Shown: positions 18,152 to 37,048 of the stretch, piece after piece
How the letters are laid out: each line of letters begins with the position of its first letter
How positions within the stretch are numbered: position 1 is the stretch's first letter
Assembly: GCA_964523565.1 (NCBI GenBank)
Contig: CAZGAK010000003.1
Coordinates: 11,700 to 75,699 of the forward strand
Origin: an uncultured Syntrophaceae bacterium
GTDB lineage: Bacteria > Desulfobacterota > Syntrophia > Syntrophales > UBA6807
DNA length: 64,000 nucleotides
Direction of reading: 5' to 3'
The notes under the pieces: model-generated
Seen by the model: only the letters and a program-made list of their open reading frames with translations
The model's database searches: none
What the model was told of the DNA's origin: nothing
Position numbers and translations under genes: made by a program

Positions 18152-19015
18152 ATGACTGAATTATCTGAAACCACAGGAAGTTTTGACACCCCAAAAATCT
18201 TCTACCGCAAATATCAGGCCGCCCCTGAACGGGCCCGAATTGTAATCACCCATGGCCTTGGTGAACATTCCGGCCGTTATGGCAATGTTGTCAGAAGTCT
18301 TCTCCCGAAGGGCATAACCATCTGGGCGCTGGATCATCGCGGTCACGGACAAAGCGAGGGGCCCAGAGGGCATATATTGAGCTTTGGCGAGTACATTGAC
18401 GAGCTTTATACACTGGTTCAAATGTCCAGGGAAGGCCTTCCTGAAGGCATGAAATGTTTCCTCCTGGGGCATAGCATGGGCGGGCTCATTGCCCTCAATT
18501 TCGCACTTCGCTATCCTGACATGATCGGCGGCGTGATTGTTTCTTCACCATCTCTGGGGTTAAAGGCGAAGGTGCCTGTTATCAAGGGCGCCCTGGGGAT
18601 GATTATGTCCTCCATCTGGCCCGGCTTGACTCTTGGCAATGAACTGGACGCATCAAAAATCAGCCATGACGAAGAAGTAGTCCGTGCCTATCTGAATGAT
18701 CCGCTTGTCCACGACCGGATAAGTGCCCGCTGGTTCACCGAGTTCTTATCGACCATGTCGGCAGTGAATAGTCTGGCCTCGGAAATGGAAGTCCCCATAC
18801 TTATGCAGGTGGCCGGCGATGACTATCTGGTCGACGCGAATACCTCAAAAGCTTTTTTCGAAAAATTGATCCTGAAAGATAAGGCCCTCTATATCTACGA
18901 TGGTCTATATCATGAAATCTACAATGAAAGGGAAGAGCAAAGATCCAGGGTACTGACCGACCTTGAAAACTGGCTGGAGAACCACATCAATTCAAAACTC
19001 AGCATTCAAAATTAA
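18152..19015 (+). CDS. alpha/beta hydrolase (monoacylglycerol lipase / lysophospholipase-like)
   Basis: HGLGEHSGRY and the GHSMGG nucleophile elbow. Confidence 0.8.
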   Translation: MTELSETTGSFDTPKIFYRKYQAAPERARIVITHGLGEHSGRYGNVVRSLLPKGITIWALDHRGHGQSEGPRGHILSFGEYIDELYTLVQMSREGLPEGMKCFLLGHSMGGLIALNFALRYPDMIGGVIVSSPSLGLKAKVPVIKGALGMIMSSIWPGLTLGNELDASKISHDEEVVRAYLNDPLVHDRISARWFTEFLSTMSAVNSLASEMEVPILMQVAGDDYLVDANTSKAFFEKLILKDKALYIYDGLYHEIYNEREEQRSRVLTDLENWLENHINSKLSIQN

Positions 19016-19028
19016 AAATTTTATTTTT

Positions 19029-19110
19029 CACCTTGTTCCTTTCTCCTTTGTCATTCCCGACCCGATCGGGAATCCATCTCTAAATCTGTAGGGCAAGGCT
19101 TTAGCCTTGC
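19029..19110. repeat. repeat cluster: reverse CAAGG array, REP-like palindrome (TCATTCCCGA-CC-CGATCGGGAATCC) and a second hairpin
   Basis: caccttgttcctttctcctttg, then tcattcccgacccgatcgggaatcc, then gcaaggc-ttta-gccttgc. The REP recurs at 35483-35510. Confidence 0.7.
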
Positions 19111-19361
19111 GCAGACTGCTATCATGTTACTTCCAAATTGAGGTGAAATAAAAACGGCAACCTGCACATTCAGGTCGAATATACACAAATTTTCATAATC
19201 TTTGAATCCTTGATCAAACAGCCAGTTTCCCTTGACATTATAAGGTTTTCTGCTAAGTATGTTAAAGCTTTAACAAAAGAATAAAGGATGCCATGTATTA
19301 AACAACAAATGATCTTTTCTTCATAAATACGTGAAGGTTCTAAAGATGGCAGATAATCACA

Positions 19362-19396
19362 AAAACCCCGTATCTCTTAAACAGAGGCGGGGTTTT
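19362..19396. terminator. hairpin flanked by A and T runs (bidirectional terminator-like)
   Basis: aaaaccccg...cggggttttatttt, located at the left edge of the R-M island. Confidence 0.35.
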
Positions 19397-19483
19397 ATTT
19401 TCTTCTCATAATGAAGTCGATTATGGCGGAAGTATTCTTCATCTTGTTCAATAATATAAGAAATTAAAAGAGAAGAGGGAAAA

Positions 19484-21061
19484 GTGGCAAAAAATAACAA
19501 CGGTGCGAATCTTGGGTTTGAAAACCAGTTATGGGCGGCGGCGGATAAGCTCCGGGGACATATGGATGCCTCGGAGTACAAACATGTTGTCCTTGGATTG
19601 ATCTTTTTGAAATATATCTCCGATACCTTCCAGGCCAAATATAAGAAACTGGAGGAGACCAGAGAGACGGAATACACCGACCCGGAAGACCGTGATGAAT
19701 ATGCCGCCGCCAATGTCTTCTGGGTGCCCAAAGAAGCCCGCTGGGAAGCCCTTAGGGTGGGGGCGAAGCAGCCTGCCATCGGCAAGCTCGTCGATGACGC
19801 TATGGTTGCCATCGAAAAGGAAAATCCCTTCCTCAAAAACGTTTTGCCCAAGGACTATGCACGTCCCGCCCTTGACAAATATCGTCTGGGCGAGCTTATC
19901 GACATCGTAAGCACAATAGGCCTCGGCGACGACGCGTCCCGCTCACAAGACATCCTGGGCCGTGTTTACGAATACTTTCTCGGAAAATTTGCCACCGCCG
20001 AAGGTAAAGGGGGCGGTGAATTTTATACGCCCCAATGCGTCGTCAAACTCCTTGTTCAAATGATCGAACCCTATAAAGGTCGTATTTATGATCCCTGCTG
20101 CGGTTCGGGAGGCATGTTCGTACAGAGTGAACGGTTTGTCAAAGAGCACGGCGGCAGGCGCGGCGATATCTCCATCTACGGGCAGGAGTCGAACGCAACA
20201 ACCTGGAAGCTTGCCAAAATGAACCTGGCCATCCGCGGCATCGATCCCAATCTTGGCTTACAACAGGCGGACAGTTTCAGCAACGATCTGCACAAAGATC
20301 TCAGGGCCGACTTTCTCCTTGCCAATCCCCCCTTCAATATGAGCGACTGGGGCGGCGAGCGGCTCAAGGACGATGTTCGCTGGAAATTCGGAGTGCCGCC
20401 GGTAAACAACGCAAACTACGCATGGATTCAGCATTTCATCCACCACCTCTCTCCGACGGGGATTTCCGGGTTTGTCATGGCCAACGGTTCCATGTCCACC
20501 AATACGGCAAGCGAAGGCGAAATCCGAAAAAGCATCATCGAGGGGGACTTCGTGGATTGTATGATCGCCCTTCCGGGGCAGCTTTTTTATACGACCCAGA
20601 TTCCCGTCTGTCTCTGGTTTGTCTCCCGGAACAAGAAAAACGGCAGATTCCGCAACCGATGCGGTCAGACCCTCTTTATCGATGCCCGAAAGATGGGAAC
20701 TCTTATAGACCGGGTTCACCGTGAACTTTCCGATGACGAGATCAACCGGATCGCCGGAACCTACCATGCCTGGCGAGGTGAACCGATAACCCCCTCTACC
20801 CCTGTGGGAGAGGGTGGGGGTGAGGGGTACAAAGATATCCCCGGGTTCTGCAAGTCGATCGAAACGAAAGAAATTAGAGACCACGGCTATGTTCTTACCC
20901 CTGGCCGCTATGTCGGCGCGGAAGAGGTGGCGGATGACGGCGAACCGCTCGAAGAAAAAATGACCCGACTCACGATACAATTAAAAGAACAGTTCTCTGA
21001 GTCATGCCGGCTGGAAGCAATAATTGCAAAAAACTTGAAAGGTCTTGGTTATGAAATTTGA
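19484..21061 (+). CDS. hsdM: type I restriction-modification system methyltransferase subunit M
   Basis: HsdM_N ([10 protein letters not shown]), SAM motif [10 protein letters not shown], catalytic LANPPFN. GTG start. Confidence 0.95.
20783..20829 (+). repeat. GEG-type palindromic repeat embedded in-frame in hsdM
   Basis: ccgataaccccctctacccctgtgggagagggtgggggtgagggg is translated as [15 protein letters not shown], between AWRGE and [10 protein letters not shown]. Confidence 0.6.
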
Positions 21062-22136
21062 TCCGAAAAAGCCATGTAACGATCTTCCGTTGCTTCCGCC
21101 AAAGGCGGATATTGAGACAAAAGAGGTGCTCAAGAAAGCAATTACGGCAACGCGTGCACTGGCGGAACTCAAGGGGCTTGGCGAGACGATTCCCAACCAA
21201 GCCATTCTTGTAAATTCCCTCACTCTTCAAGAGGCCAAAGTAAGTTCAGAGATTGAAAATGTCATTACGACTAATGATGCACTTTTTAGGGCATTTACCG
21301 CCAGTACCACCAATATTGATTCCGCTACCAAAGAGGTTTTGAGATATCGGGAGGCGTTGTGGAAAGGATTTAACGCTCTTAAGGGGCGTCAGGTTCTGAC
21401 AACAAATCTTTTTGTGGATATTGTCAGGACAATCAAAAAAAATCAGGCCGGCATTCGAAATATCCCCGGAACAGCCGTCGCAAACGGTGTAACCGGCGAG
21501 GTGATTTTTACTCCGCCTGAAGGTGAATCGGTTATCCGAGACAAATTAAAGAATCTCGAAGACTTTATTCATGCTGAAGACTCCATAGATCCGCTAATCA
21601 AATTAGCTGTTATCCATTATCAGTTTGAATCAATTCACCCTTTTTTAGATGGCAATGGCAGGACAGGGAGAATTATCAACATTCTTTACCTTGTGTTCAG
21701 TGGCCTTCTGGAACTGCCGATTTTATATTTGAGCAAATATATCATTGAAAACAAGGGCGAGTACTACAAACTTTTGCGGCGGGTCACGGAACATGCCGAT
21801 TGGGAACCATGGATTCTTTATATGCTTAATGCTGTGGAGGACACGGCTCTGTTTACTAGAGAGAGGATTTTTGCGATCCGGGATCTGATGGAAAAAACAC
21901 GCCTTGTCGCCAAGGAAAAGTTGCCTGGTCGTGTTTATTCCAAGGAACTCATCGAGCTTCTGTTCCAGCAGCCATACTGTAAAATTGCGTTTCTTGTGGA
22001 TAAGGGAATCGCTTCACGTAATATTGCCAGCAATTACCTCAATGAACTAACCAAGATCAGCATTTTAAAAAAGGAAAAAATCGGAAATGAATTTGTGTTC
22101 CTTAATATACCGTTGTATGAACTGCTTACAAAATAA
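21051..22136 (+). CDS. Fic family protein (Fic_N + Fic core + C-terminal wHTH-like tail)
   Basis: Fic motif [12 protein letters not shown]; N-terminal inhibitory-type motif SSEIEN ([ST]xxxE[GN]). ATG at 21051 overlaps the last 11 nt of hsdM. Confidence 0.9.
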
Positions 22137-22248
22137 TAAGGGATACACCGGATCAGTGCATACCACGGAAGAGAGCACTAATATAGTTATAATCAGTGCA
22201 TACCGAAAAGTCATGCACTGATTTAGTGCATTGATGAACACGTTATAG

Positions 22249-22275
22249 AAACATGTCCATGGCATGGACATGTTT
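22249..22275. other. 27-bp perfect palindrome (13-bp arms, 1-nt centre)
   Basis: aaacatgtccatg-g-catggacatgttt, checked by hand reverse-complementing. Confidence 0.85.
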
Positions 22276-22319
22276 GATTGTGCGAGCTTCAATAAACGGC
22301 AATGATTCATGGCGGAGCT

Positions 22320-22376
22320 GATCAGCTCGAAGCCACCATCAAGAAGAACTTAGAGGTTCTGGATTATGGTGAGTGA
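22320..22376 (+). pseudogene. remnant of the 3' end of a second hsdM (about 18 codons), stop overlapping the hsdS start
   Basis: Translates DQLEATIKKNLEVLDYGE*, compared with the resident hsdM tail [18 protein letters not shown]. An upstream TAA closes the frame at about 22296. Confidence 0.6.
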
Positions 22377-23553
22377 TTGGACATCTACAACTGTTGGCTC
22401 CTTCTGCCCATTTGCATACGGGAAAGGACTGCCTGAGAAGAAACGCAACATGAATGGAAATATCAAGGTCTATGGTTCCAATGGTCCAGTGGGAGTGCAC
22501 GATCAGCCATTGGTAGACGAGTCTGGGATTGTCGTTGGCCGAAAAGGCACCGTCGGAGCCGTTCATTTTGCCCCTGAGCCATTTTGGCCAATTGATACCA
22601 CTTTTTATATAGTCGGTAAAGCTGACAGAGATCTTAGCTTCACGTATTACTTGCTCAAGTCAATTGGATTAGAACACATGAACGCAGATAGTGCTGTCCC
22701 CGGTCTGAATCGCGATGCAGCACATGCACGACCAATACTTGTTCCAGAACACCCTGAACAACGCGCTATAGCCCATATCCTCGGATCGCTGGACGACAAA
22801 ATCGAACTGAACCGCAAGATGAATGAAACACTGGAGGCAATGGCCCGCACCATCTTCAAGAGCTGGTTTATCGATTTCGATCCCGTCCGCGCCAAAGCCG
22901 AAGGCCGCGACCCCGGTCTTCCCAAAGAAATCGCCAACATCTTCCCCGACAGCTTCGAGGATTCGGAACTTGGAGAGATTCCGAAAGGATGGGAAGTCGG
23001 AGCCATTGCAGATTTGGCGAATGTGACAAGTGGAAAAAGACCGCAGAAAAGGTCAAAAGAGAAAACGGGAGAATTTACCATACCTTTGTATGGCGGCGGC
23101 GGCATTATGGCTTATGTCTCAACACCGATGATTTCAGAACCATTTTTACTGACAGGACGTGTTGGAACCCTGGGAAAAATATTTCGCATTACAGAAGAAT
23201 GTTGGCCGTCAGATAATACGCTTTTATTGTTTCCTTTGTGTAATTCCTATTTGGAATATCTTTATTTTATCCTCCATAGAATCGATTTTGATTCATTAAA
23301 CAGAGGTTCGACACAGCCGCTCGTAACCCAGACAGACATTAAGAATCAAAGAGTAGTTATTCCAAATGAGAATATTTTAAGATTTTATTGGCAACAAGTG
23401 CATCCAATGTTCGAGCGAATTGATAAGAATGATAAAGAGACCGCCACCCTTGCCTCTCTTCGCGACACACTACTCCCCAAACTCATTTCGGGCGAACTGC
23501 GAGTTCCGGATACGGAAAAATTCGTAGAGGAGGGGCTGGCCCATGACCAATAA
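22366..23553 (+). CDS. hsdS: type I restriction-modification system specificity subunit S
   Basis: Two target-recognition domains separated by the conserved central helix (LPEQRAIAHILGSLDDKIELNRKMNETLEAMARTIF), plus the C-terminal conserved helix (LASLRDTLLPKLISGELRV). Confidence 0.92.
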   Translation: MVSDWTSTTVGSFCPFAYGKGLPEKKRNMNGNIKVYGSNGPVGVHDQPLVDESGIVVGRKGTVGAVHFAPEPFWPIDTTFYIVGKADRDLSFTYYLLKSIGLEHMNADSAVPGLNRDAAHARPILVPEHPEQRAIAHILGSLDDKIELNRKMNETLEAMARTIFKSWFIDFDPVRAKAEGRDPGLPKEIANIFPDSFEDSELGEIPKGWEVGAIADLANVTSGKRPQKRSKEKTGEFTIPLYGGGGIMAYVSTPMISEPFLLTGRVGTLGKIFRITEECWPSDNTLLLFPLCNSYLEYLYFILHRIDFDSLNRGSTQPLVTQTDIKNQRVVIPNENILRFYWQQVHPMFERIDKNDKETATLASLRDTLLPKLISGELRVPDTEKFVEEGLAHDQ

Positions 23554-26500
23554 TAGCAAACAACTCAGCAATCCTTTTTCGACCGGTGGCGGTGGTGGAC
23601 AATTCGAGGCACATGTGCAGGCGTCTTTTGTCGTGCTCATGCTTACTGGCGGGTTTGTACCTTGTATGCCTTGCTGGCCTATCAGCAAGATAAAGCTACA
23701 AGGGAAATTTGCCGGATATGATACCGATGATCTTGTCGTTTTTGTCGAGAAGCCAGGTAGTAACCAGAAGCGGAAGATTCTTGGTCAGATCAAGCATTCC
23801 ATCAGCATCACTGAAAATGACAAAGTTTTCGGCGAGGTCATTCAGGCCGCATGGAACGACTTTAACAATACCAGTCTGTTTTCCAGAGGCAAAGATGCCA
23901 TTGCCCTTATCACCGGCCCATTGAGCGCAACGGATGTCAACGATGTGCGTACCATTCTTGAATGGGCAAGGTACTCGGAAAACGCTGACGAATTTATCAA
24001 AAAAGTAGAACTGACTCATTTCAGCAGCCAGAGAAAACAAAACAAGTTACAAACCTTCAAAACAAATCTGAAAAATGCTAATGGTGGCAATCCTGTTTCA
24101 GACGAAATTCTTTTTGAATTCCTGAAACATTTTCACCTTCTTGGCTATGACTTAGATATCAAGGCCGGAGTCACTTTATCGCTACTTCATTCTCTGATTG
24201 GTCAATATTCACAGGAGAATGCACAGTCGTTGTGGTCTCGACTTGTCGATGAGGTGCAATCTGCCAACAAGAACGCGGGCACCATTTCACCAGAAAGCCT
24301 TCCCGATGATTTACATACCGCCTTCAAGCAACGGGTCTATGAGGTCATCCCTCACGAGTTTTCATCTGGTCAGTTGCCGTCAGCCAAGCCAAATTGGAAT
24401 CAGTACCCATACGCTTCTGATCTGGTGATTGCCAATCTTCTTGGCGCATGGAATGAGAAAAACGCAGCCGATCTTGAAGTCGTTTGTCAACTCGCCAATG
24501 AGGAGTTTGGTTCTTGGATTCCCAAAATCAGGGAGATACTACAACAACCAGAAAGTCCAGTTTCCCTGAAAAACGGTAGGTGGCGTGTTACTGACCGGAA
24601 AAGCTTATGGCAGGCTTTAGGTACAAGGCTCTTTGATGATAATTTGGACAACTTGAAGCAGTGTGTTGTCACCGTCTTGTCAGAGCGCGATCCCCAGTTT
24701 GAATTATCTCCCGAAGAACGCTATGCCGCTATCATTCATGGGAAGGCATTGAAGCATTCACCAGAACTTCGGAAGGGTCTGGCTGAAAGTCTGACACTTC
24801 TTGGTACCCAACCCGACGATTTGAATAACTGCTCACAAAATAAGCCAGAAACTATTGCCGTTCTTGCTATTCGAGAAATCTTTGAGAATGCGGATTGGGT
24901 ATTGTGGGGCAGCTTGAATAATCTGCTCTCGGTTTTGGCTGAATCATCCCCTGATGAGTTTTTGAACGCGGTTGAAAATGCGTTGCAGCAAACTCCCTGC
25001 CCGTTTGACGAGCTATTCTCACAAGAAGGCGATGGCATCACCGGCAGAAATTACCTTACCGGCTTGCTTTGGGCGTTGGAAACTCTCGCATGGGATGAGA
25101 AATTCTTGGTTAGAGTGTGTGTGATTCTTGGTGATCTATCCACCCTTGACCCTGGTGGCAACTGGGCCAACCGTCCGACCAATTCCCTCACGACGATTTT
25201 GCTTCCGTGGCTTCCTCAAACCACGGCGTCTATCAATAAGCGCAAGGTTGCGCTGCAAACTCTTCAAAAGGAGGTTCCGGCAGTTGCATGGAAGCTCTTG
25301 CTCAGCCTACTGCCAAACCAGCACCAGATGTCAATGGGTGCTCATAAGCCTTCATGGCGTAATACCATTCCCGATGATTGGGTAAAGGGCGTGACTCAAA
25401 AGGAGTATTGGGAGCAGGTTACCTTTTACGCTGAACTGGCGGCTTCGATGGCAAGCCATGACATGGAAAAGCTGCATAAGCTTGTTGGTCATCTCGACAA
25501 CTTGCCTCAGCCTTCTTTCGACAAAGTTCTGGAACACCTGTCATCGGAAGCTGTATGCAGCAAACCAGAAGATGAACGTCTGGCACTTTGGACTGGACTG
25601 ACTAAGTTTGCCTTAAAGCACAGACGCTTTTCCGATGCAAAATGGGCACTGAGTTCTGACATCATTTCAAAAATCGAGAATGTTGCCGCAAAACTTGCCC
25701 CTACCAATCCATTAAACCTTCATCGCAGGTTGTTTAGCGGTCGTGACTTCGATCTCTACGAAGAAAAAGGAAACTGGGAAGAACAGCGGCGGAAGCTCGA
25801 TGAACGCCGTCAGCAGGCAATAAAAGATATCTTGGCCTATGGCGGAACGGATGCGGTAACCTGGTTTGCCGAATCTGTTAAGTTGCCTTTTCATGTCGGT
25901 CATTCCCTTGGTGTAATCGCCGAGCCAGAAATTGATAAAAGGATACTTCCAGCACTGCTGGAAACAGATAATAAGAAACTCGCACAATTCACAAGCGGCT
26001 ATATTTGGAGTCGCCGAAATAGCAATGGTTGGGCATGGGTCGATGGACTGGATAGATCGGGTTGGTCAGTCTCACAGATCGGCCAGTTTTTAAGCTATCT
26101 GCCCTTTACAGAGGAGGCTTGGTTTCGTGCGGGAGCGTGGCTTGGAGGGTCTGAAAATGAATATTGGAGTAGAACAAGTGCGAATCCTTATCAGCCAGAT
26201 GGCAACCTTGAGGATGCCATTGATAAACTGCTGGAAAATGAAAGGCCCAATGTTGCGATCAGCTGCCTGAATAGAATGCTCTATAACAAACAGCCGTTGG
26301 ATAAGTCGCAAAGCGTGAAGGCTCTTCTTTCTGCGGTATCTTCCAAAGAACCTTCATACGCGATGGACACATATGACATTGTTGAAATAATAAAGGCCTT
26401 ACAAGATGATCCTGACACTGATCCCGAAGATCTTTTCCGGGTTGAGTGGGCATACCTGCCCTTACTGGATCGATATCATGGCGCTTCGCCGGAGTTGTTG

Positions 26501-27118
26501 GAAAATCGACTCGCTTCTGACACAGCATTTTTCTGTGAGGTTATACGTCTTGTTTATCGTTCAAAAAAGAAGGGCAAATCCGAGAAAGAGCCAAACGAGC
26601 AGGAAAAATCCATTGCTACAAATGCGTGGAGACTCCTTCATGAATGGCGCACCCCACCAGGCATGCAGCCTGATGGCATTTTTTCGGGGGAGAAATTTAC
26701 ACAGTGGTTTGAACATACCAAGAAGGCGTGTGCTGAATCCGGGCATCTTGAAGTAGCCTTGACACATGTAGGACAAGTTCTAATTTATTGTCCACCTGAT
26801 CTGCAAGGATTATGGATAGATCAAACCGTTGCCAATGCACTCAATGCAAAGGATGCCGAGGAAATGCGAAACGGTTTCCGTACTGCAATTTTCAATTCTC
26901 GTGGGGTTCACTGGGTCGACCCAACTGGAAAACCAGAACGAGAGCTTGCCGAACAGTATAGACAAAAAGCCAATGAGGTTGAGAACGCTGGATATCAGCG
27001 TTTCGCAGTCACGCTTAGGAGCTTGTCAGAATCTTACAACCATGATGCGGATCGAATTATCGCCGAACATAAGGAGGAAGACAACGCCAGCAATAACGAG
27101 GAGAGGTCCAATGAATGA
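23543..27118 (+). CDS. 1191-aa uncharacterised protein; N-terminal Mrr/Cap4-like nuclease-type motif pattern and a long helical C-terminal region
   Basis: Uninterrupted 3.6-kb ORF. The ATG overlaps the hsdS stop by 11 nt, and the TGA overlaps the ATG of the hsdR stub. Motifs G15GGGGQFE, D60-T-D-D-LVVFVEK70 and Q82-I-K84-H. No Walker A found by eye. Confidence 0.8.
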   Translation: MTNNSKQLSNPFSTGGGGGQFEAHVQASFVVLMLTGGFVPCMPCWPISKIKLQGKFAGYDTDDLVVFVEKPGSNQKRKILGQIKHSISITENDKVFGEVIQAAWNDFNNTSLFSRGKDAIALITGPLSATDVNDVRTILEWARYSENADEFIKKVELTHFSSQRKQNKLQTFKTNLKNANGGNPVSDEILFEFLKHFHLLGYDLDIKAGVTLSLLHSLIGQYSQENAQSLWSRLVDEVQSANKNAGTISPESLPDDLHTAFKQRVYEVIPHEFSSGQLPSAKPNWNQYPYASDLVIANLLGAWNEKNAADLEVVCQLANEEFGSWIPKIREILQQPESPVSLKNGRWRVTDRKSLWQALGTRLFDDNLDNLKQCVVTVLSERDPQFELSPEERYAAIIHGKALKHSPELRKGLAESLTLLGTQPDDLNNCSQNKPETIAVLAIREIFENADWVLWGSLNNLLSVLAESSPDEFLNAVENALQQTPCPFDELFSQEGDGITGRNYLTGLLWALETLAWDEKFLVRVCVILGDLSTLDPGGNWANRPTNSLTTILLPWLPQTTASINKRKVALQTLQKEVPAVAWKLLLSLLPNQHQMSMGAHKPSWRNTIPDDWVKGVTQKEYWEQVTFYAELAASMASHDMEKLHKLVGHLDNLPQPSFDKVLEHLSSEAVCSKPEDERLALWTGLTKFALKHRRFSDAKWALSSDIISKIENVAAKLAPTNPLNLHRRLFSGRDFDLYEEKGNWEEQRRKLDERRQQAIKDILAYGGTDAVTWFAESVKLPFHVGHSLGVIAEPEIDKRILPALLETDNKKLAQFTSGYIWSRRNSNGWAWVDGLDRSGWSVSQIGQFLSYLPFTEEAWFRAGAWLGGSENEYWSRTSANPYQPDGNLEDAIDKLLENERPNVAISCLNRMLYNKQPLDKSQSVKALLSAVSSKEPSYAMDTYDIVEIIKALQDDPDTDPEDLFRVEWAYLPLLDRYHGASPELLENRLASDTAFFCEVIRLVYRSKKKGKSEKEPNEQEKSIATNAWRLLHEWRTPPGMQPDGIFSGEKFTQWFEHTKKACAESGHLEVALTHVGQVLIYCPPDLQGLWIDQTVANALNAKDAEEMRNGFRTAIFNSRGVHWVDPTGKPERELAEQYRQKANEVENAGYQRFAVTLRSLSESYNHDADRIIAEHKEEDNASNNEERSNE

Positions 27119-27299
27119 TAACGTCTCCAGCATCACCGAAAATACCCTCGAACAAACCACCCTTGATTGGGTCGAATCCTTGGGTTGGCAGACCGCTTTC
27201 GGTCCCGACATCAGTCCGAACCTGCTGGTACCGGACATGGCACGGCAGACGGGTTCCCACGGGGCAGGTAAACACGCAGACAGGGAGGCTGGCGTATGA
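27111..27299 (+). pseudogene. hsdR 5' stub (first ~40 codons homologous to the HsdR N terminus, then unrelated sequence and a stop)
   Basis: MNDNVSSITENTLEQTTLDWVESLGWQTAFGPDISPN... compared with the MSKTSENTLEQTTLDWFESLGWQTAFGPNISPD of hsdR at 28305. About 86% nt identity over 84 nt by hand alignment. Confidence 0.8.
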
Positions 27300-28312
27300 A
27301 CAGCGAAATTATATTCTACAGCACGCCGGATGGTGATAAGAAGATCGAGGTATTATTTCAGGATGAGAATTTTTGGTTGACGCAGAAGGATATTGCCCGG
27401 CTGTTCGGCGTTGAAGTACCCGCCATCAGCAAACATTTGGGGAACATCTACGAGACAGGAGAACTGGACAGGAAGTCAACTCTTTCCATTTTGGAAACAG
27501 TTCGCCAAGAGAGCAGTCGCAGCGTAAAGCGGAAGCTGGAATATTACAACCTCGACGCCATTATTGCTACGGGCTATCGGGTCAACAGCTATCAGGCCAC
27601 CCAGTTTCGCATCTGGGCGACCAAAACCTTGAAAGAGTTTATCATCAAGGGTTTTGTGCTGGATGATGAACGGCTCAAGCAGGGAAAGTGCTTTGGTAAG
27701 GATTATTTCGATGAACTCCTTGAACGTATCCGGGAGATTCGAGCCAGTGAACGACGTTTCTATCAAAAGATCACCGACATTTACGCGCTTGCGGCCGATT
27801 ACGACGAAGATGCGCCCATCACCAAGGATTTTTTTGCCACAGTGCAGAACAAGCTCCATTGGGCCATTACCGGCAAGACCGCCGCTGAAATCATCTATGC
27901 CTCGGCCGATGCAGGGAAAATACACATGGGTTTGACCAGTTGGAAACAGGCGCCTGACGGCAAGATAATGAAATCGGATGTTTCCGTCGCTAAAAACTAT
28001 TTAAACGAGGCGCACATCAAAGAATTGAACCGCATTGTTTCCGCCTATCTTGACCTTGCGGAAAATCGGGCTGAACGGCAAATGTTGATGAAAATGGAAG
28101 ATTGGATCCAGTTCCTTCACAAATTTCTGGAACTTTCCAACTATCCCATTCTTCAAGATAAGGGCAAAGCGAGCGCGATAGAGGCCAAACTCAAAGCCGA
28201 ACAGGAATATGACACCTATCGCAAGCGACAGGACCGGGAGTTCATTTCAGACTTTGACAGGGAAGTCAAACGGATTCAGGGCAAGCACAAGCAAGAGGGT
28301 GACGATGAGTAA
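27296..28312 (+). CDS. rhuM: RhuM-family protein
   Basis: N terminus IIFYSTPDGDKKIEVLFQDENFWLTQKDIARLFGV and YYNLDAIIATGYRVNSYQATQFRIWATK are typical of RhuM. The ATG overlaps the stub stop (ATGA) and the stop overlaps the hsdR ATG. Confidence 0.88.
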   Translation: MNSEIIFYSTPDGDKKIEVLFQDENFWLTQKDIARLFGVEVPAISKHLGNIYETGELDRKSTLSILETVRQESSRSVKRKLEYYNLDAIIATGYRVNSYQATQFRIWATKTLKEFIIKGFVLDDERLKQGKCFGKDYFDELLERIREIRASERRFYQKITDIYALAADYDEDAPITKDFFATVQNKLHWAITGKTAAEIIYASADAGKIHMGLTSWKQAPDGKIMKSDVSVAKNYLNEAHIKELNRIVSAYLDLAENRAERQMLMKMEDWIQFLHKFLELSNYPILQDKGKASAIEAKLKAEQEYDTYRKRQDREFISDFDREVKRIQGKHKQEGDDE

Positions 28313-31300
28313 AACTTCCGAAAACACCCTTGAACAAACCACCCTCGACTGGTTTGAATCCCTTGGATGGCAAACCGCTTTCGGTCCCAACATCAGTCCG
28401 GACGGCCTTTCCTGTGAGCGGAAGGATTATGATCATGTCGTACTGGAAGACCGACTGCGAACCACACTCCATGATATTAATCCGAATATACCGTACAGTG
28501 CGCTTGATGATGCCCTTCGTAAAATCACACGCACCGAAAGTCCCAGCCTGATTGAAAACAACCGGCGGTTTCACCGGTTTCTGACCGACGGGGTGGACGT
28601 TTCCTATATGGACGATGGCCGCGAGGTCTTCGATAAAGTATGGCTTCTCGATTTAGCGGATCTGGAAAATAACGACTGGCTTGTGGTCAACCAGTTTACC
28701 GTGGTTGAGAATCGAATAAACCGCAGGCCCGATCTGGTGGTCTTTGTTAATGGGCTACCCCTGGCGGTGGTGGAATTGAAAAATCCCGCCGACGAAAAGG
28801 CGACAATCCGGCAGGCCTTTAACCAGTTCCAGACGTATAAGCAGGATATACCCACACTTTTTGCGTACAACGAACTCTTAATCGTCTCCGACGGTCTTGA
28901 GGCGCGGTGCGGCTCCATTACCAGCGGCTGGGACCGCTTCATGCCCTGGCGCACCGTTGACGGTACGGAAGTTGTTCCGAAGGGCTTGGTAGAACTGGAA
29001 GTGCTTATCAAGGGAATTTTTGACAAGCGTCGTCTCCTTGACCTGCTCCTCAACTTTATCGTCTTTGAAGACGATGGGAGTGTTATCGTTAAAAAAGTTG
29101 CCGCCTATCACCAATATCATGCCGTCAACAAGGCCGTGGAATGCACCTTGTCGGCCTGTGGTATTACAGCCAAATCAGGACAATTATATGCCGATTTTCC
29201 CGTCCACGATGAATTGAATCCTTTTGAGATATAGGAAGCTGCCGCGCCGGGCTGGACGACATCAACTCACTTCGGCGGCCGCCGCATCGGTGTCATATGG
29301 CATACTCAGGGAAGCGGCAAAAGTCTTTCCATGGCCTTTCTTGCCGGCAAAGTCATCCGTCATCCGGCAATGAAAAACCCGACCATCGTCGTCATCACCG
29401 ACCGCAACGATCTGGACGAGCAGCTCTTCGGGACCTTTTCCCGGTGCAGGGATCTCATGCGTCAGACACCAGTACAGGCTGAATCCAGACCCCATCTTCG
29501 GACACTTTTGAACATTCCCGCCGGAGGTGTTGTGTTCACCACGATTCAGAAGTTCATGCCCGAAGAGAAAGGGGATCGGTATCCGAAGTTATCCGATCGA
29601 GAGAATATCGTGGTAATTGCCGATGAAGCCCACCGCAGCCAGTATGACTTTATCGACGGATATGCCCGCCACATGCACGACGCCTTGCCCAAGGCATCAT
29701 TCATCGGCTTTACCGCCACGCCGATTGAACGGGATGACCGGAGCACGCCTGCGGTTTTCGGTGATTACATAGATACCTACGATATGCTTCGGTCCATTGA
29801 AGACAAGGCAACTGTGCCCATCTATTACGAAGGAAGGCTTGCAAAAACAGAACTCGATAAGGATGAGTGGCCTGCAATCGATCCGGAATTTGAAGAAATT
29901 ACCGAGGGAGAAGAAGAAACGGCAAAACAGCGTCTGCGCACCAAGTGGGCTGCCCTTGAGGCAATGGTGGGAACGGAAAAACGGATTGCCCTTGTGGCGG
30001 AAGACCTCGTGAGACATGCCGAGGAGCGGCAGAGCGTCATGAAGGGAAAGGTGCTCATCGTATGCATGAGCCGCCGCATCTGTGTAGATATGTATAACGC
30101 GATTGTAAAGTTACGACCTGAATGGCACGGTGGTGACGACGATAAAGGAATTGTCAAAATTGTCATGTCGGGCGCGGCATCGGATAAGCTCGAATGGCAA
30201 CCTCATATTCGCAATAAGGCCCGGCGTGAAACATTGGCCAAGCGGTTTAAAAATGCTGAAGACCATCTTGCTGTGGTTATTGTCCGCGACATGTGGCTTA
30301 CGGGATTTGACTGTCCGTCCATGCATACCATGTATGTGGATAAGCCGATGCGGGGGCATGGATTAATGCAGGCAATCGCGCGGGTCAATCGTGTTTTTAA
30401 AGATAAACCGGGCGGGTTGGTGGTCGACTATATCGGACTTGCCTATCAACTGAAGCGTGCATTGGCCGATTATACTGAAGCTGGCGGTCGTGGAAAAGCG
30501 ACATTTGATCAGGAAGAGGCCGTCGCTGTGATGCTTGAGAAATATGATATTGTGGTCACGATGTACCATGGTTTTGACTATATATCGCTCATTAATGCAA
30601 CACCGGCGGAACGGCTTTCCGGCATTGCTGCGGCCATGGAACATATTTTTCAAATCGAAGAAGGCAAGACGCGCTATCTCGAATCGGTGACGGCGTTATC
30701 GAAGGCCTTTGCACTTGCTGTTCCCCATGAAAAGGCTCTTAAAATCCGGGATGAGGTTGGATTTTTTCAGGAAGTGCGAAGCGCCTTGGCAAAAGCAACC
30801 GTCGAGGGTGAAGGTAAAACGCAGGAAGAAATGGATACGGCAATCCAACAGTTAGTGTCACGGGCTGTCATTTCCGATGAAGTTGTCGATATCTTTGCAT
30901 CGGTGGGACTGAAAAAGCCTGACATTTCTATTCTATCTGATGAATTTCTTGAAGAAGTCAGACAACTGCCTCATAAAAATCTGGCCGTGGAAGTGTTGAG
31001 GAAACTTCTCAATGACGAAATTAAAGCCCGGTCAAGGAAGAACGTTGTTCAAGCACGTTCATTTTCCGAGATGCTTGAGGAAGCGATTATTAAGTATCAG
31101 AATAGGGCCATAGAGGCGGCGCAGGTCATCGAAGAATTAATAACCCTTGCCAGAGAGATGCGCAAGGCGCAAAAACGCGGCGAAGAACTTAACCTCAATG
31201 AAGACGAAATCGCCTTTTACGATGCACTGGGCGTCAATGACAGCGCAGTAAAGATATTAGGTGATGATATCCTAAAGACGATTGCCCACGAATTAGTGAC

Positions 31301-31481
31301 GGCCGTTCGCAGAAATGTCTCCGTTGACTGGACAGTACGAGAAAATGCGAGGGCACAGATTCGGGTAATCGTCAGACGCATTTTGAGAAAATACGGCTAT
31401 CCGCCCGATAAGCAGGAAAAGGCAACACAGACTGTATTGGAGCAGGCAGAAGTTTTGTGCAAGGAATGGGTGACCACATAA
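28305..31481 (+). pseudogene. hsdR: type I restriction endonuclease subunit R, interrupted by a single in-frame TAG at 29232-29234
   Basis: HsdR_N nuclease motif (PDLVVFVNGLPLAVVELKNP). The same frame continues after the TAG into [22 protein letters not shown] (Walker A), [10 protein letters not shown] (DEAH) and a DUF3387-like tail ([22 protein letters not shown]). ORFs 28209..29234 and 29331..31481 share one frame. Confidence 0.9.
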
Positions 31482-31820
31482 TGAAGAGGCAAATATCCGT
31501 TCAAATTACGATGGAGTTATCAATGTCCGACAGAGATGCGTTGGTATTCAGGCAATAAATTAAAGTGATGAGAACAGGATAAGAAATAGAAGGGAGGTTA
31601 TGATGACAAAAAATAATACAAAGAATTTGAAAGACAAGACTAAAAAGGCCCTTCACAGATTGAGAACAACTAATCATATTGAAATGTCTAATAGATGATT
31701 TTGTGCAGCCACATTACTGGGATTCTATTGATTATATGCGTCATAGATATGGGGGGATTTAGGATTGATAGATTGCAGTAAAACGTCTGTATTGACTTTT
31801 TGAAAATATCGATAGGGGAA

Positions 31821-32441
31821 ATGATATCTGTGGGACGTCCGAGCCTATGTGATCCTCATAATATTAAGCTTCGTAACATAATAGACATGGGATTAACCTT
31901 CTCTGCCATGATACGACTATTTAAAAAAGAAACAAAAGGAAAGCTTCATGAAAGAATCATGGAGGACGCGAAGAAGATCTTCGATGCGAAATCAATAGAG
32001 GACTTCAATAGCATTCATTCCATTTTTTGTAAGTGGGGTGTTGAGAATGTTCTACTAGCCGAAAGAAAGAAGAATGAAAAAGTTATAAAGAAAGAAGGCC
32101 CTGCAAGCTATGGTCAAATTGCCAAGACATTTGATGTAGTCATGAAAGTTGTTATTTATTATTCACGATTGCCAGATTTTGAGACTTCAGAAAAAATATT
32201 GCCATGGTTGAATCCTGCAGTTGACACTCAAATGATGAAAATGCTTAAGAAGCATTATAAAAAACAAAATCCTCTGTTGATAAAGAACATTTCTCCTTGG
32301 CCCATAACTGTGGAAGAAGTATGCGAAGTAAAGTATCAGCAAATTCAGGATCTTGTTCGCAAATTCATTAACGATGAGCATAATGGGGATATCATACCAG
32401 TCCAATTTGATGATATTTATTGGAATCAGTTGAATCGTTAA
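31821..32441 (+). CDS. hypothetical protein (206 aa, Lys-rich, AT-rich codons)
   Basis: ORF 31800..32441; ATG at 31821 follows AGGGGAA. No family recognised. Confidence 0.5.
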   Translation: MISVGRPSLCDPHNIKLRNIIDMGLTFSAMIRLFKKETKGKLHERIMEDAKKIFDAKSIEDFNSIHSIFCKWGVENVLLAERKKNEKVIKKEGPASYGQIAKTFDVVMKVVIYYSRLPDFETSEKILPWLNPAVDTQMMKMLKKHYKKQNPLLIKNISPWPITVEEVCEVKYQQIQDLVRKFINDEHNGDIIPVQFDDIYWNQLNR

Positions 32442-35726: not shown

Positions 35727-35942
35727 TTATCGTCTTCCGTGTACCGCAGCATCGGCAATTTGACCTGATCTTTTTTTCGCGTCTGAGTCGATGTGACATT
35801 TTTTATATTTCTTGCCGCTGCCACACCAGCAGAGATCATTTCTGCCGAGTTTGAAATCTTCGCGGGAATTCCGGGGGGAATTCCGGGGGGGAATTCCGGG
35901 GGAATTCCGGGGGGGAATTCCGGGGGAATTCCGGGGACGCAA
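35727..35942 (-). pseudogene. SEC-C motif ORF fragment (no ATG start; N terminus is a translated tandem repeat)
   Basis: [16 protein letters not shown] is a SEC-C metal-binding motif. The ORF begins at TTG inside the GGAATTCC(G)n array. Confidence 0.3.
35864..35936. repeat. tandem array of six AATTCC cores separated by G runs of 6, 7, 5, 7 and 5 (24-bp higher-order unit)
   Basis: gggaattccggggggaattccgggggggaattccgggggaattccgggggggaattccgggggaattccgggg, counted base by base. Confidence 0.9.
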
Positions 35943-36229: not shown

Positions 36230-37048
36230 TTAATAAGGCAACTCGATAATGACACCGACACCACCTTCGATAAAATTTTTTCCCCAGGCATCTCGAAATA
36301 GATCTCGAGCCTGTGCTCCGGTGCAGTGACTGGGTGCAACCTTTCGAACACCCAATTCCTGAAGACGGGAAACAATATGCTTAATCTCACCGGGAGACAT
36401 CGAGGAGAGGTGAAATCCGCCTATAATCATGTAAACATCGTCTTTATGTTGTTCTTTTGCCGCTTTTACAATATTGACAATGCCGGGATGAGCACAGCCC
36501 GTGATGATTGCCATACCCTTCGATGTCTTCACTATCAAGGTCTGTTCCTGAATCCCGAGTCCCATCTCTCCGGTTGTGTACACGTCTTTACACAGCTGTC
36601 TCGCTTTACTCACCTCCTCGATAGTCACACCCTTCCTCTTGGTAGCATGTTTAAAATGCGAGGGGAAAGATGCCGGTACATAAACCACCACATCATTTTT
36701 ATGTTTTAAAAACTCGGTCAGCCCCCCGGCGTGATCACTGTGAATATGCGATAGAACAACGACATCGATACTTTCGGGATCGACGTTCATGCGCTTCATG
36801 TTGTGGAGTAAAATGCTTCCATCTTCTCCGGTATCAAACAACAGGGTTTTTTCATTACCCTTGACGAGACAGGCAAACCCCCAATCGGTTATGCAATCGG
36901 TCCTCCCGGAGACATTGTTATAAAGAACAGTAATCGTGGTAGACTGAGCACCGGCTTCAACGAGTCCCGATGGCATTATAACGCATACCACAAGGACCAA
37001 TATAATAAAAAGCGCAGAGGTCCGGTCTTGCTTTTTGCCATTCCGCAT
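36230..37048 (-). CDS. secreted MBL-fold metallo-hydrolase
   Basis: Signal peptide plus the VLSHIHSDHAGG motif. Confidence 0.8.
   Translation of the reverse strand: MRNGKKQDRTSALFIILVLVVCVIMPSGLVEAGAQSTTITVLYNNVSGRTDCITDWGFACLVKGNEKTLLFDTGEDGSILLHNMKRMNVDPESIDVVVLSHIHSDHAGGLTEFLKHKNDVVVYVPASFPSHFKHATKRKGVTIEEVSKARQLCKDVYTTGEMGLGIQEQTLIVKTSKGMAIITGCAHPGIVNIVKAAKEQHKDDVYMIIGGFHLSSMSPGEIKHIVSRLQELGVRKVAPSHCTGAQARDLFRDAWGKNFIEGGVGVIIELPY

Follow-up and report, generated by a model that had tools for sequence, protein, structure and literature searches.

Here we report that the hsdR gene of a Type I restriction-modification locus in an uncultured Syntrophales bacterium is very probably a recent nonsense pseudogene, a young amber allele fixed in one near-clonal population, and that the locus is most likely restriction-deficient and modification-proficient (r- m+). 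The interrupting stop codon is real, it is unique to one lineage and fixed in all assemblies sampled, and neither a recoding signal nor a re-initiation site is present at hsdR. The analysis covered a 64-kb stretch of DNA, referred to below as the window, together with related loci and proteins from metagenomic collections.

The original prediction described a single in-frame TAG within hsdR, and translation of positions 28209-31481 confirmed it: the TAG at 29232-29234 is the only internal stop, lies in frame with the whole gene, and divides it into 309 codons, the stop, and a further 748 codons (Table 1). The peptide quoted across the gap was also exact. The open reading frame start at 28209 is mechanical, and the biological start is the ATG at 28305 (MSKTSENTLEQ...), which overlaps the stop codon of the upstream rhuM gene.

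Table 1. Features of the Type I locus in the window
Feature	Position	Strand	Description	Evidence
hsdM	19484..21061	+	methyltransferase subunit, intact, 525 aa	Pfam N6_Mtase E=2.3e-107 (2-310 of 311), HsdM_N E=2.5e-26
fic (SoFic-type)	21045..22136	+	cargo between hsdM and hsdS	Pfam Fic_N, Fic, SoFic-like_C; PADLOC SoFic E=4.2e-115
hsdS	22366..23553	+	specificity subunit, two TRDs, intact, 395 aa	Pfam Methylase_S, two stretches, E=3e-31
ORF1191	23543..27118	+	uncharacterised conserved cargo	N-terminal alpha/beta domain, then alpha-solenoid
ORF62	27111..27299	+	dead remnant, first ~45 codons of an older, different hsdR allele	direct repeat, tblastn
rhuM-family gene	27296..28312	+	cargo	Pfam Virulence_RhuM E=3.4e-112; PADLOC PDC-S05 E=5.7e-154
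hsdR (complete frame)	ATG 28305 to TAA 31481	+	one internal stop, codon 310	
hsdR 5' part, codons 1-309	28305..29231	+	PD-(D/E)xK nuclease domain and first helix of helicase domain 1	
amber codon 310 (TAG)	29232..29234	+		frame translation; TAG in every locus retrieval
hsdR 3' part, codons 311-1058	29235..31481	+	SF2 motor and C-terminal helical domain	frame open

All other hsdR motifs are undamaged, leaving the TAG as the sole lesion. The 5' part matches Pfam HSDR_N (E=2.5e-52) and carries the predicted nuclease motif, D143...E157-L-K159 (28731-28733 and 28773-28781), upstream of the stop; D143, E157, L158 and K159 are invariant columns among 48 intact relatives, and all four are present in the query. 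Downstream of the stop lie the Walker A motif GSGKS (29310-29324) and the DEAH box (29622-29633), within a 3' part that matches SWI2_SNF2 (E=3.8e-77), ResIII (E=8.4e-21), a T1R_D3-like domain and T1RH-like_C (E=2.9e-138, profile positions 2-328 of 329), the methyltransferase-docking domain. The two fragments cleanly divide the NCBIfam hsdR model TIGR00348 between them, with profile positions 1-260 in the N fragment and 266-670 in the C fragment; the N fragment alone reaches 198.8 bits, against a whole-protein cut-off of 284.55. The nuclease domain, SF2 motor, C-terminal helical domain and association with hsdM and hsdS thus identify the gene as hsdR, and the one family feature it lacks, owing to the TAG at codon 310, is an unbroken frame that puts nuclease and motor on one polypeptide. 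The stop had been placed between the nuclease domain and Walker A, which is right as to order; more precisely, it falls past the boundary between the nuclease domain and helicase domain 1, in an insertion that varies among lineages and is flanked by the conserved AAYHQYHAVNKAVE segment and by the strand preceding the P-loop. Residues 264-328 of the query correspond to residues 273-302 of EcoR124I HsdR. For the closest intact relative, the AlphaFold model gives a weak hint of coil at residues 285-321, its mean pLDDT of 50.8 being too poor for more.

If the stop were a sequencing or assembly artefact, the true codon would be a sense codon. This possibility, for which no supporting evidence emerged, is effectively refuted, as the TAG was found in 21 of 21 locus retrievals, which represent 15 distinct contigs from 15 assemblies. 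These came from three pipelines (JGI, ENA k141 contigs and Logan) with different assemblers, and include recombinant variants; some of the contigs were retrieved through the neighbouring rhuM gene and the downstream channel gene, independently of the TAG. The counts rest on assembly consensus sequences, so that minor sense alleles could coexist within samples, and the samples probably derive from one project or site, so that "fixed" refers to one population only. A pattern of the exact flanks with a free codon (NNN), which does match the window and all TAG loci, gave no match in metagenome_contigs and genome_contigs, an uninformative result because these two collections lack this lineage. No intact allele with more than 92.5% amino-acid identity was present in a collection of 5.8 billion proteins or in the relevant 90% clusters.

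The comparison with relatives proposed in the original prediction showed sense codons in the relatives and TAG in the bacterium's own lineage. In 120 relatives the aligned column holds R (70), K (17), G (7), Q, T and H (5 each), and also S, E, N, Y, L and V; the closest intact relatives (87-93% identity) have R or G at codon 310, and the nearest one has AGG. The sense codons at this site indicate that the TAG is derived. Of the three alternatives originally offered, a recent nonsense pseudogene is supported, whereas a sequencing or strain variant is discarded as an error and holds only insofar as the whole sampled lineage carries the TAG.

That population is practically clonal. Flanking sequences show 0 differences over 9.7 kb in one retrieved locus (L096) and 0 over 14.6 kb downstream of position 24592 in another (L002), and variation inside hsdR is confined to dense tracts. 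The tracts are imports rather than new mutations, because 41 of the 102 variant bases equal the base of an intact allele, P0001. Among 519 highly conserved columns, the query deviates at 3 and intact homologs at a median of 4, which limits neutral drift to roughly <0.7% per site. The original observation of no other decay over 3.2 kb holds in that a second lesion is absent, but it poses no puzzle given flanks with 0 SNPs: hsdR shows no further decay because the population is practically clonal and the allele too young to have had time for it. A pristine gene with one stop in a clonal population is accordingly no evidence of recoding. Differences among the TAG alleles are mainly synonymous (S) rather than nonsynonymous (N): 11S/0N in L003, 10S/0N in L004, 4S/0N in L009, 1S/0N in L005 and 18S/8N in L008. 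We considered the corresponding dN/dS as a test of ongoing selection and dropped it, since the changes are clustered in tracts and 41 of 102 are P0001 bases; the differences are imports from alleles selected elsewhere, or assembly mixing. Synonymous-only differences between alleles have no value as a sign of selection when they lie in imported recombination tracts. In favour of the pseudogene reading, broken hsdR genes are common in this family, and the locus already contains ORF62, a relic of an earlier hsdR. Against it we counted the lack of a second lesion in hsdR, the position of the TAG at a site that seems to tolerate any residue, so that even weak read-through would suffice for a functional protein, and the persistence of the allele, never repaired, in recombinant or alternative contexts (L002, L007 and L008).

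A split but functional enzyme, in which the 309-aa nuclease fragment reassembles non-covalently with a separately initiated motor, is extremely unlikely. The break does fall in a long variable loop, predicted as coil in the low-confidence model. However, no ATG, GTG or TTG lies in frame between the TAG and Walker A; the sole in-frame start candidates before GSGKS are ATC at 29286 and ATA at 29295, both lacking a Shine-Dalgarno sequence, and the first in-frame ATG downstream (29331) falls after GSGKS, as originally noted, so that its use would remove the P-loop. The break also falls between the conserved AAYHQYHAVNKAVE helix and the remainder of helicase domain 1, not at a domain boundary. Finally, truncated or frameshifted hsdR genes of the same family are frequent on long contigs, and their break points are scattered between residues 238 and 569, which argues against a recurrent split. 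The search for homologs of the N fragment returned short proteins only, so that the scatter of break points is informative and the length frequencies are unusable.

The third alternative was that hsdR needs stop-codon suppression; nothing was found to support it, and several lines of evidence speak against it. Some Deltaproteobacteria use pyrrolysine, and the window displays only 64 kb of the genome; a pyrrolysine system or suppressor tRNA decoding the TAG would make hsdR a normal full-length gene. This is scarcely credible, as TAG works as a terminator in this genome: it ends 9 of the 47 other long ORFs in the window, among them adk, a HemN-like gene, a beta-eliminating lyase and an EamA transporter, in each case where the domains naturally end. 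No other stop-split gene exists in the window, where the only other same-frame TAG pair comprises two unrelated genes (a cupin and a metallo-beta-lactamase), and the window contains no tRNA genes. No stimulatory RNA structure was found 3' of the TAG (fold z=+0.86; 170 of 200 shuffles folded equally well or better). Diverged orthologs do not conserve the UAG, the 120 relatives having sense residues, and a full-text literature search gave no report of pyrrolysine use in Syntrophales; among the papers listed, a single one, on anaerobic digestion, mentions both subjects.

Leaky termination, in which near-cognate read-through supplies a little full-length active HsdR and restriction is throttled rather than abolished, is a better candidate than dedicated decoding but still improbable. 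The linker around the TAG is simply hypervariable (linker dN/dS 0.36), and any residue seems to be tolerated at codon 310, so that even weak read-through would yield functional HsdR; moreover, the remainder of the gene is pristine, and Type I enzymes work at low copy number. On the other hand, TAG-G also occurs at three true terminators, no stimulatory structure follows, the TAG is not conserved beyond one clonal lineage, and basal bacterial read-through is typically far below 1%. The pristine state is fully accounted for by the youth of the allele. An elaboration of this idea would make the amber codon a selected translational throttle, with rare read-through in the residue-tolerant linker giving trace HsdR and a near-r- state that allows exchange of hsdM-cargo-hsdS modules without self-restriction; we regard it as more doubtful still.

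Other routes around the stop were examined and rejected. TadA A-to-I editing (UAG to UGG) would require a UACG-type loop, and the site reads UAGG without a hairpin. Frameshifting by +1 or -1 is unneeded, since frame 0 is the conserved one on either side of the TAG, and a compensated frameshift near the TAG, which could have accounted for an unusual stretch of ten residues there, was dismissed because the alternative frames have no similarity to relatives. A phase-variable switch was also rejected, as the lesion carries neither a repeat nor an invertible element and all 21 retrievals have the TAG, with no ON allele; tandem repeats are absent at or near 29232, the single array being a weak one at 29352-29366, and no inverted repeats occur in 19000-32000.

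According to the preferred reading of a recent nonsense pseudogene, an amber mutation would have arisen at codon 310, in a variable linker on the protein surface that closely precedes the translocase P-loop. Translation would stop there and produce a 309-residue nuclease fragment without the ATP-driven motor, and the active motor part could not be made separately for want of a start codon before Walker A. HsdM and HsdS, both intact, would still methylate target sites as an M2S1 complex while restriction would be gone. As the two subunits are intact, the locus most likely methylates yet no longer restricts; this loss of restriction with retention of methylation is the most likely state by analogy with hsdR nonsense mutants that have been studied experimentally.

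The rest of the locus offers several observations in their own right. Whole hsdM-cargo-hsdS specificity modules have been exchanged between the type seen in the window and that of L002, and the central and C-terminal regions of HsdS are conserved and common to L002 HsdS. ORF1191 belongs to a large uncharacterised family, with at least 1982 homologs, that rides in Type I loci. It had been called nuclease-like, a description that no profile match supports and whose one basis is the N-terminal alpha/beta domain of a predicted model, with conserved E22...D63...Q82-x-K84. There was no match to ORF1191 in Pfam, PADLOC, NCBIfam or PDB sequences; it matches phrog_18693, where no function is assigned, and a fold search against the PDB with its AF2 model (mean pLDDT 82.9) gave only generic alpha-solenoid matches (TM 0.1-0.2).

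Upstream of rhuM lies the older hsdR remnant, ORF62, revealed by an 86-nt direct repeat (27136-27221 and 28318-28403, 86% identity). Its translation contains ITENTLEQTTLDWVESLGWQTAFGPDISP, is 77% identical by tblastn over HsdR residues 1-35, and aligns with a longer remnant in L007. The old remnant and the current hsdR bracket rhuM. Of greater value than the stop codon may be the module swapping, the bracketing of rhuM and the ORF1191 family.

In annotation, the locus is best given as a Type I system whose R subunit is a pseudogene (probably r- m+), and neither as two genes nor as a recoding candidate. Beyond correct annotation its significance is small, and the special interest originally attached to a restriction-dead, methylation-proficient locus was overrated, as r- m+ Type I loci are a common, well-documented and already known state (PMC3312211; bioRxiv 10.1101/2022.09.01.506293).

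The HsdR described here belongs to the TIGR00348 family with a HindI-like C-terminal domain (Pfam T1RH-like_C), its frame broken at codon 310, and shares 91-93% identity with intact metagenomic HsdR proteins. Among solved structures the nearest is that of EcoR124I HsdR (PDB 2w00, 4be7), with which the present HsdR has in common the domain order of nuclease, SF2 motor (GSGKS, DEAH) and helical C-terminal domain typical of TIGR00348; the similarity is remote (E about 1e-35, in three stretches), and the linker ahead of the P-loop strand is ~35 residues longer than in EcoR124I. The gene resembles cases of programmed UAG recoding in having an in-frame UAG although it is conserved and otherwise intact; it differs in that its UAG is unconserved in orthologs and lacks a 3' signal, in that UAG is a normal terminator in the same genome region, and in that a tRNA search of the 64-kb window found no decoding machinery. 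The nearer parallels are disrupted hsdR alleles beside intact hsdM and hsdS. In Staphylococcus aureus RN4220, a premature stop in sau1hsdR leaves a strain that modifies without restricting (PMC3312211), and in Xylella fastidiosa 3 of the 11 strains with XfaIII have a disrupted hsdR, which leaves methylation unaffected according to the authors (bioRxiv 10.1101/2022.09.01.506293). The same phenotype of modification without restriction is expected here. Unlike those strains, the present case comes from an uncultured environmental Syntrophales bacterium seen in metagenome assemblies only, and its allele is fixed across the sampled assemblies and is found together with exchanged M-S modules.

The Type I restriction-modification island lies on the forward strand in the gene order hsdM-fic-hsdS-ORF1191-ORF62-rhuM-hsdR, with gene assignments based on Pfam, PADLOC, and NCBIfam (see table). 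To judge from its sequence, the restriction subunit gene hsdR is a member of the HsdR family, and translation of its frame revealed a sole internal stop, TAG 29232-29234 at codon 310. The 309 codons of the 5' part encode a complete HSDR_N nuclease domain (Pfam, E=2.5e-52) including the nuclease motif D143...E157-L-K159, and the 748 codons of the 3' part match the SWI2_SNF2/ResIII, T1R_D3-like, and full T1RH-like_C (E=2.9e-138) Pfam domains, with GSGKS at 29310-29324 and DEAH at 29622-29633. The NCBIfam hsdR model TIGR00348 breaks exactly at the TAG (profile positions 1-260 versus 266-670). Thus, the original prediction of one in-frame TAG splitting hsdR between the nuclease domain and Walker A was correct except for the start coordinate, as the gene begins at ATG 28305, overlapping the stop of rhuM. 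Since HsdR family members require an uninterrupted frame, the gene is a pseudogene of this family.

Features of the restriction-modification island and positions of variant tracts
Feature	Position	Strand	Assigned by
hsdM	19484-21061	+	Pfam/PADLOC/NCBIfam
fic, SoFic-type	21045-22136	+	Pfam/PADLOC/NCBIfam
hsdS	22366-23553	+	Pfam/PADLOC/NCBIfam
ORF1191, uncharacterised, 1191 aa	23543-27118	+	
ORF62, 62 codons	27111-27299	+	
rhuM	27296-28312	+	Pfam/PADLOC/NCBIfam
hsdR	ATG 28305 to TAA 31481	+	Pfam/PADLOC/NCBIfam
Variant tracts	23434-24591, 25789-25957, 27946-27957, 29514-29528, 29684-29690, 30146-31457		

An alignment with 120 full-length relatives (74-93% identical, ~1056-1207 aa) places codon 310 in a hypervariable linker that separates the conserved AAYHQYHAVNKAVECTLSACG segment from the next strand; the aligned column contains R in 70 proteins, K in 17, G in 7, and Q, T, and H in 5 each, plus others. 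The window reads GAG ATA TAG GAA at this site, versus GAG GTA AGG GAT in the closest intact relative. A hidden frameshift was rejected because no alternative frame restores similarity, and the TAG is therefore a substitution. Query residues 82-264 and 328-504 align to residues 96-273 and 302-473 of the solved EcoR124I HsdR, so the TAG sits in a lineage-specific insertion where helicase domain 1 begins and not at a domain boundary. The AlphaFold model of the closest intact relative was too poor to inform on the stop site (pLDDT 50.8). Precomputed matches assign extra Pfam domains to some full-length relatives, namely PF04480 and PF18741 in P0072 and PF01541 in P0104.

Within the assembly collection, 25 blocks contain the exact 309-aa product; because this look-up depends on the TAG, the two neighbours, rhuM upstream and a 337-aa channel gene downstream, were looked up as well. 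All 21 retrievals reaching the site carry the TAG. They represent 15 distinct contigs in 15 assemblies from JGI (3300028156, 3300028168, 3300028193, 3300028272, 3300028276), ENA (ERZ27248897, ERZ27248922, ERZ27248936, ERZ27248937, ERZ27248939, ERZ27248954), and Logan (SRR8437218, SRR8437243, SRR8437272, SRR8437279), which excludes the sequencing or assembly artefact considered earlier. The proposed comparison with related populations yielded no sense allele among these retrievals, and no intact protein of >92.5% identity was found among the matches or in the relevant 90% clusters. The accession series suggest a single project, and therefore probably one population that was sampled many times.

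Apart from the TAG, hsdR is pristine, as originally noted: of 519 columns with at least 97% conservation across relatives, it deviates at 3, the median for intact homologs being 4. Comparison with the DNA of the closest intact relative gives an overall dN/dS of 0.14 (dS 0.28), with 0.14 in the N part, 0.10 in the C part, and 0.36 in the linker, so nearly all of this divergence arose under selection, and neutral drift is limited to roughly <0.7% per site. In practice, the population is clonal: among contigs from the same locus, L096 is identical to the window across 9.7 kb and L002 across 14.6 kb downstream of 24592, and the sole difference in L001 is one 300-bp tract within ORF1191. Because of this clonality, the lack of other decay needs no special explanation; this appearance is just what one expects of a nonsense mutation that is older than a very recent clonal expansion.

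The hsdR differences among the TAG alleles all lie in dense, mostly synonymous tracts. Of 102 variant bases, 41 are the same as in the intact P0001 allele. The tracts are therefore imports from elsewhere in this widespread family of alleles, or result from assembly mixing, and are not new mutations; they are uninformative on selection acting on the interrupted gene. Variant tracts in an otherwise SNP-free background also occur at the hsdS 3' end and in ORF1191 and rhuM, besides the hsdR C-part, a pattern that fits gene conversion from family members (possibly a same-genome paralogue) or chimeric metagenome assembly. Downstream of the channel gene, the otherwise clonal flank has an indel polymorphism, a 24-base stretch (35874-35897) that differs or is absent in contigs L102 and L104. 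Further along, a metallo-beta-lactamase-fold gene on the reverse strand (36230-37048) adjoins trmO in a chromosomal setting, and its product has a precomputed match to PF23023 (Anti-Pycsar_Apyc1).

The suggested need for stop-codon suppression was not upheld. The window has another 47 long ORFs, and TAG ends 9 of them, at natural domain ends (adenylate kinase, HemN-like radical-SAM protein, beta-eliminating lyase, EamA transporter), and the one other same-frame ORF pair parted by TAG consists of unrelated cupin and metallo-beta-lactamase genes. The TAG-G context is common to three genuine terminators, the 64-kb window has no tRNA, and a 105-nt stretch spanning and following the TAG folds no better than shuffles (z=+0.86). 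The host, an uncultured bacterium, belongs to the Syntrophales, its LepA being up to 85% identical to Syntrophaceae/Syntrophales MAGs. A full-text literature search found no report of pyrrolysine use in this order; among the papers listed, a single one, on anaerobic digestion, combined the two sets of terms. Low-level near-cognate read-through, which the residue-tolerant linker could accommodate, is improbable, and its stronger version, a selected throttle permitting exchange of M-S modules, even more so. A functional split enzyme failed the tests applied: between the TAG and Walker A, in-frame near-start codons are limited to ATC 29286 and ATA 29295, both lacking a Shine-Dalgarno sequence, and the first downstream ATG (29331) indeed lies after GSGKS. 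Phase variation failed likewise, as no repeat tract or inverted repeat was found at the lesion.

In the same family, truncated HsdR N-terminal products are often seen on long contigs, and they also occur in the isolate genome of Dethiosulfovibrio peptidovorans; their break points are scattered over residues 238-569, often with frameshifted tails, with no clustering at codon 310. An 86-nt direct repeat (27136-27221 versus 28318-28403, 86% identity) identifies ORF62 as what is left, from an earlier loss, of the first ~45 codons of another hsdR allele; two hsdR 5' ends thus bracket rhuM. A longer remnant of the same allele type (~117 codons) occupies the same place in contig L007 (87-476), and the arrangement suggests that the rhuM-hsdR module recombined into, or replaced, an older hsdR. 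In L007 (ENA ERZ27248897 k141_248386), the rhuM-hsdR(TAG) core is present at ~99.6% identity in other surroundings: the left flank and the downstream gene both differ, and the hsdR 3' end is diverged (720-aa C fragment); either the stop-bearing module moved to another locus or organism, or the contig is an assembly chimera. The full-length relative P0147 has ~147 additional residues past residue ~101, near the break of the L007 remnant. In the co-occurring strain L002, the whole hsdM-cargo-hsdS module is exchanged (L002:1-5250 versus window 19264-23600): HsdM is 89% identical at the amino acid level, the HsdS TRDs are unrelated or ~40% identical, SoFic has given way to YhcG/DUF1016, and another gene (Schlafen/AlbA_2) lies upstream, while the ORF1191 3' part, rhuM, hsdR(TAG), and downstream DNA are identical to the window. 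The locus is a shuffling defence island, and loss of the R subunit is one further event.

The cargo protein ORF1191 is a member of a large and uncharacterised family, whose proteins are ~1180 aa long. Its homologs number at least 1982 (63-86% identical) and come from Brocadiales, Nitrospira, Methylococcaceae, Desulfomonilaceae, and even Ca. Methanoperedens. Pfam, PADLOC, NCBIfam, and PDB sequences gave no match, and ORF1191 matches only phrog_18693, whose function is not known. In its AF2 model (pLDDT 82.9), an N-terminal alpha-beta-beta-beta-alpha-beta domain with conserved E22...D63...Q82-x-K84, possibly a PD-(D/E)xK-like nuclease, is followed by a ~900-residue alpha-solenoid lacking Walker A; a fold search returned generic solenoids and a weak Avs3 match only.

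With a single real TAG, fixed in all retrievals from a practically clonal population, one of the alternatives given earlier, hsdR as a recent nonsense pseudogene, holds: it is a recent, fixed amber pseudogene, an ordinary event of a kind already known. Translation would most likely halt at codon 310, releasing the nuclease fragment without its motor; the motor part with the P-loop would not be initiated, and M2S1 would be expected to keep methylating. In Staphylococcus aureus RN4220, the effect of a premature stop in hsdR is that DNA is modified but not restricted (PMC3312211). Of 11 natural Xylella strains with XfaIII, 3 have a disrupted hsdR, and the authors report methylation to be unaffected by the disruption (bioRxiv 10.1101/2022.09.01.506293). 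The likeness to these two systems with disrupted hsdR lies in the r- m+ state (no restriction, methylation kept), which is well documented there and predicted here.
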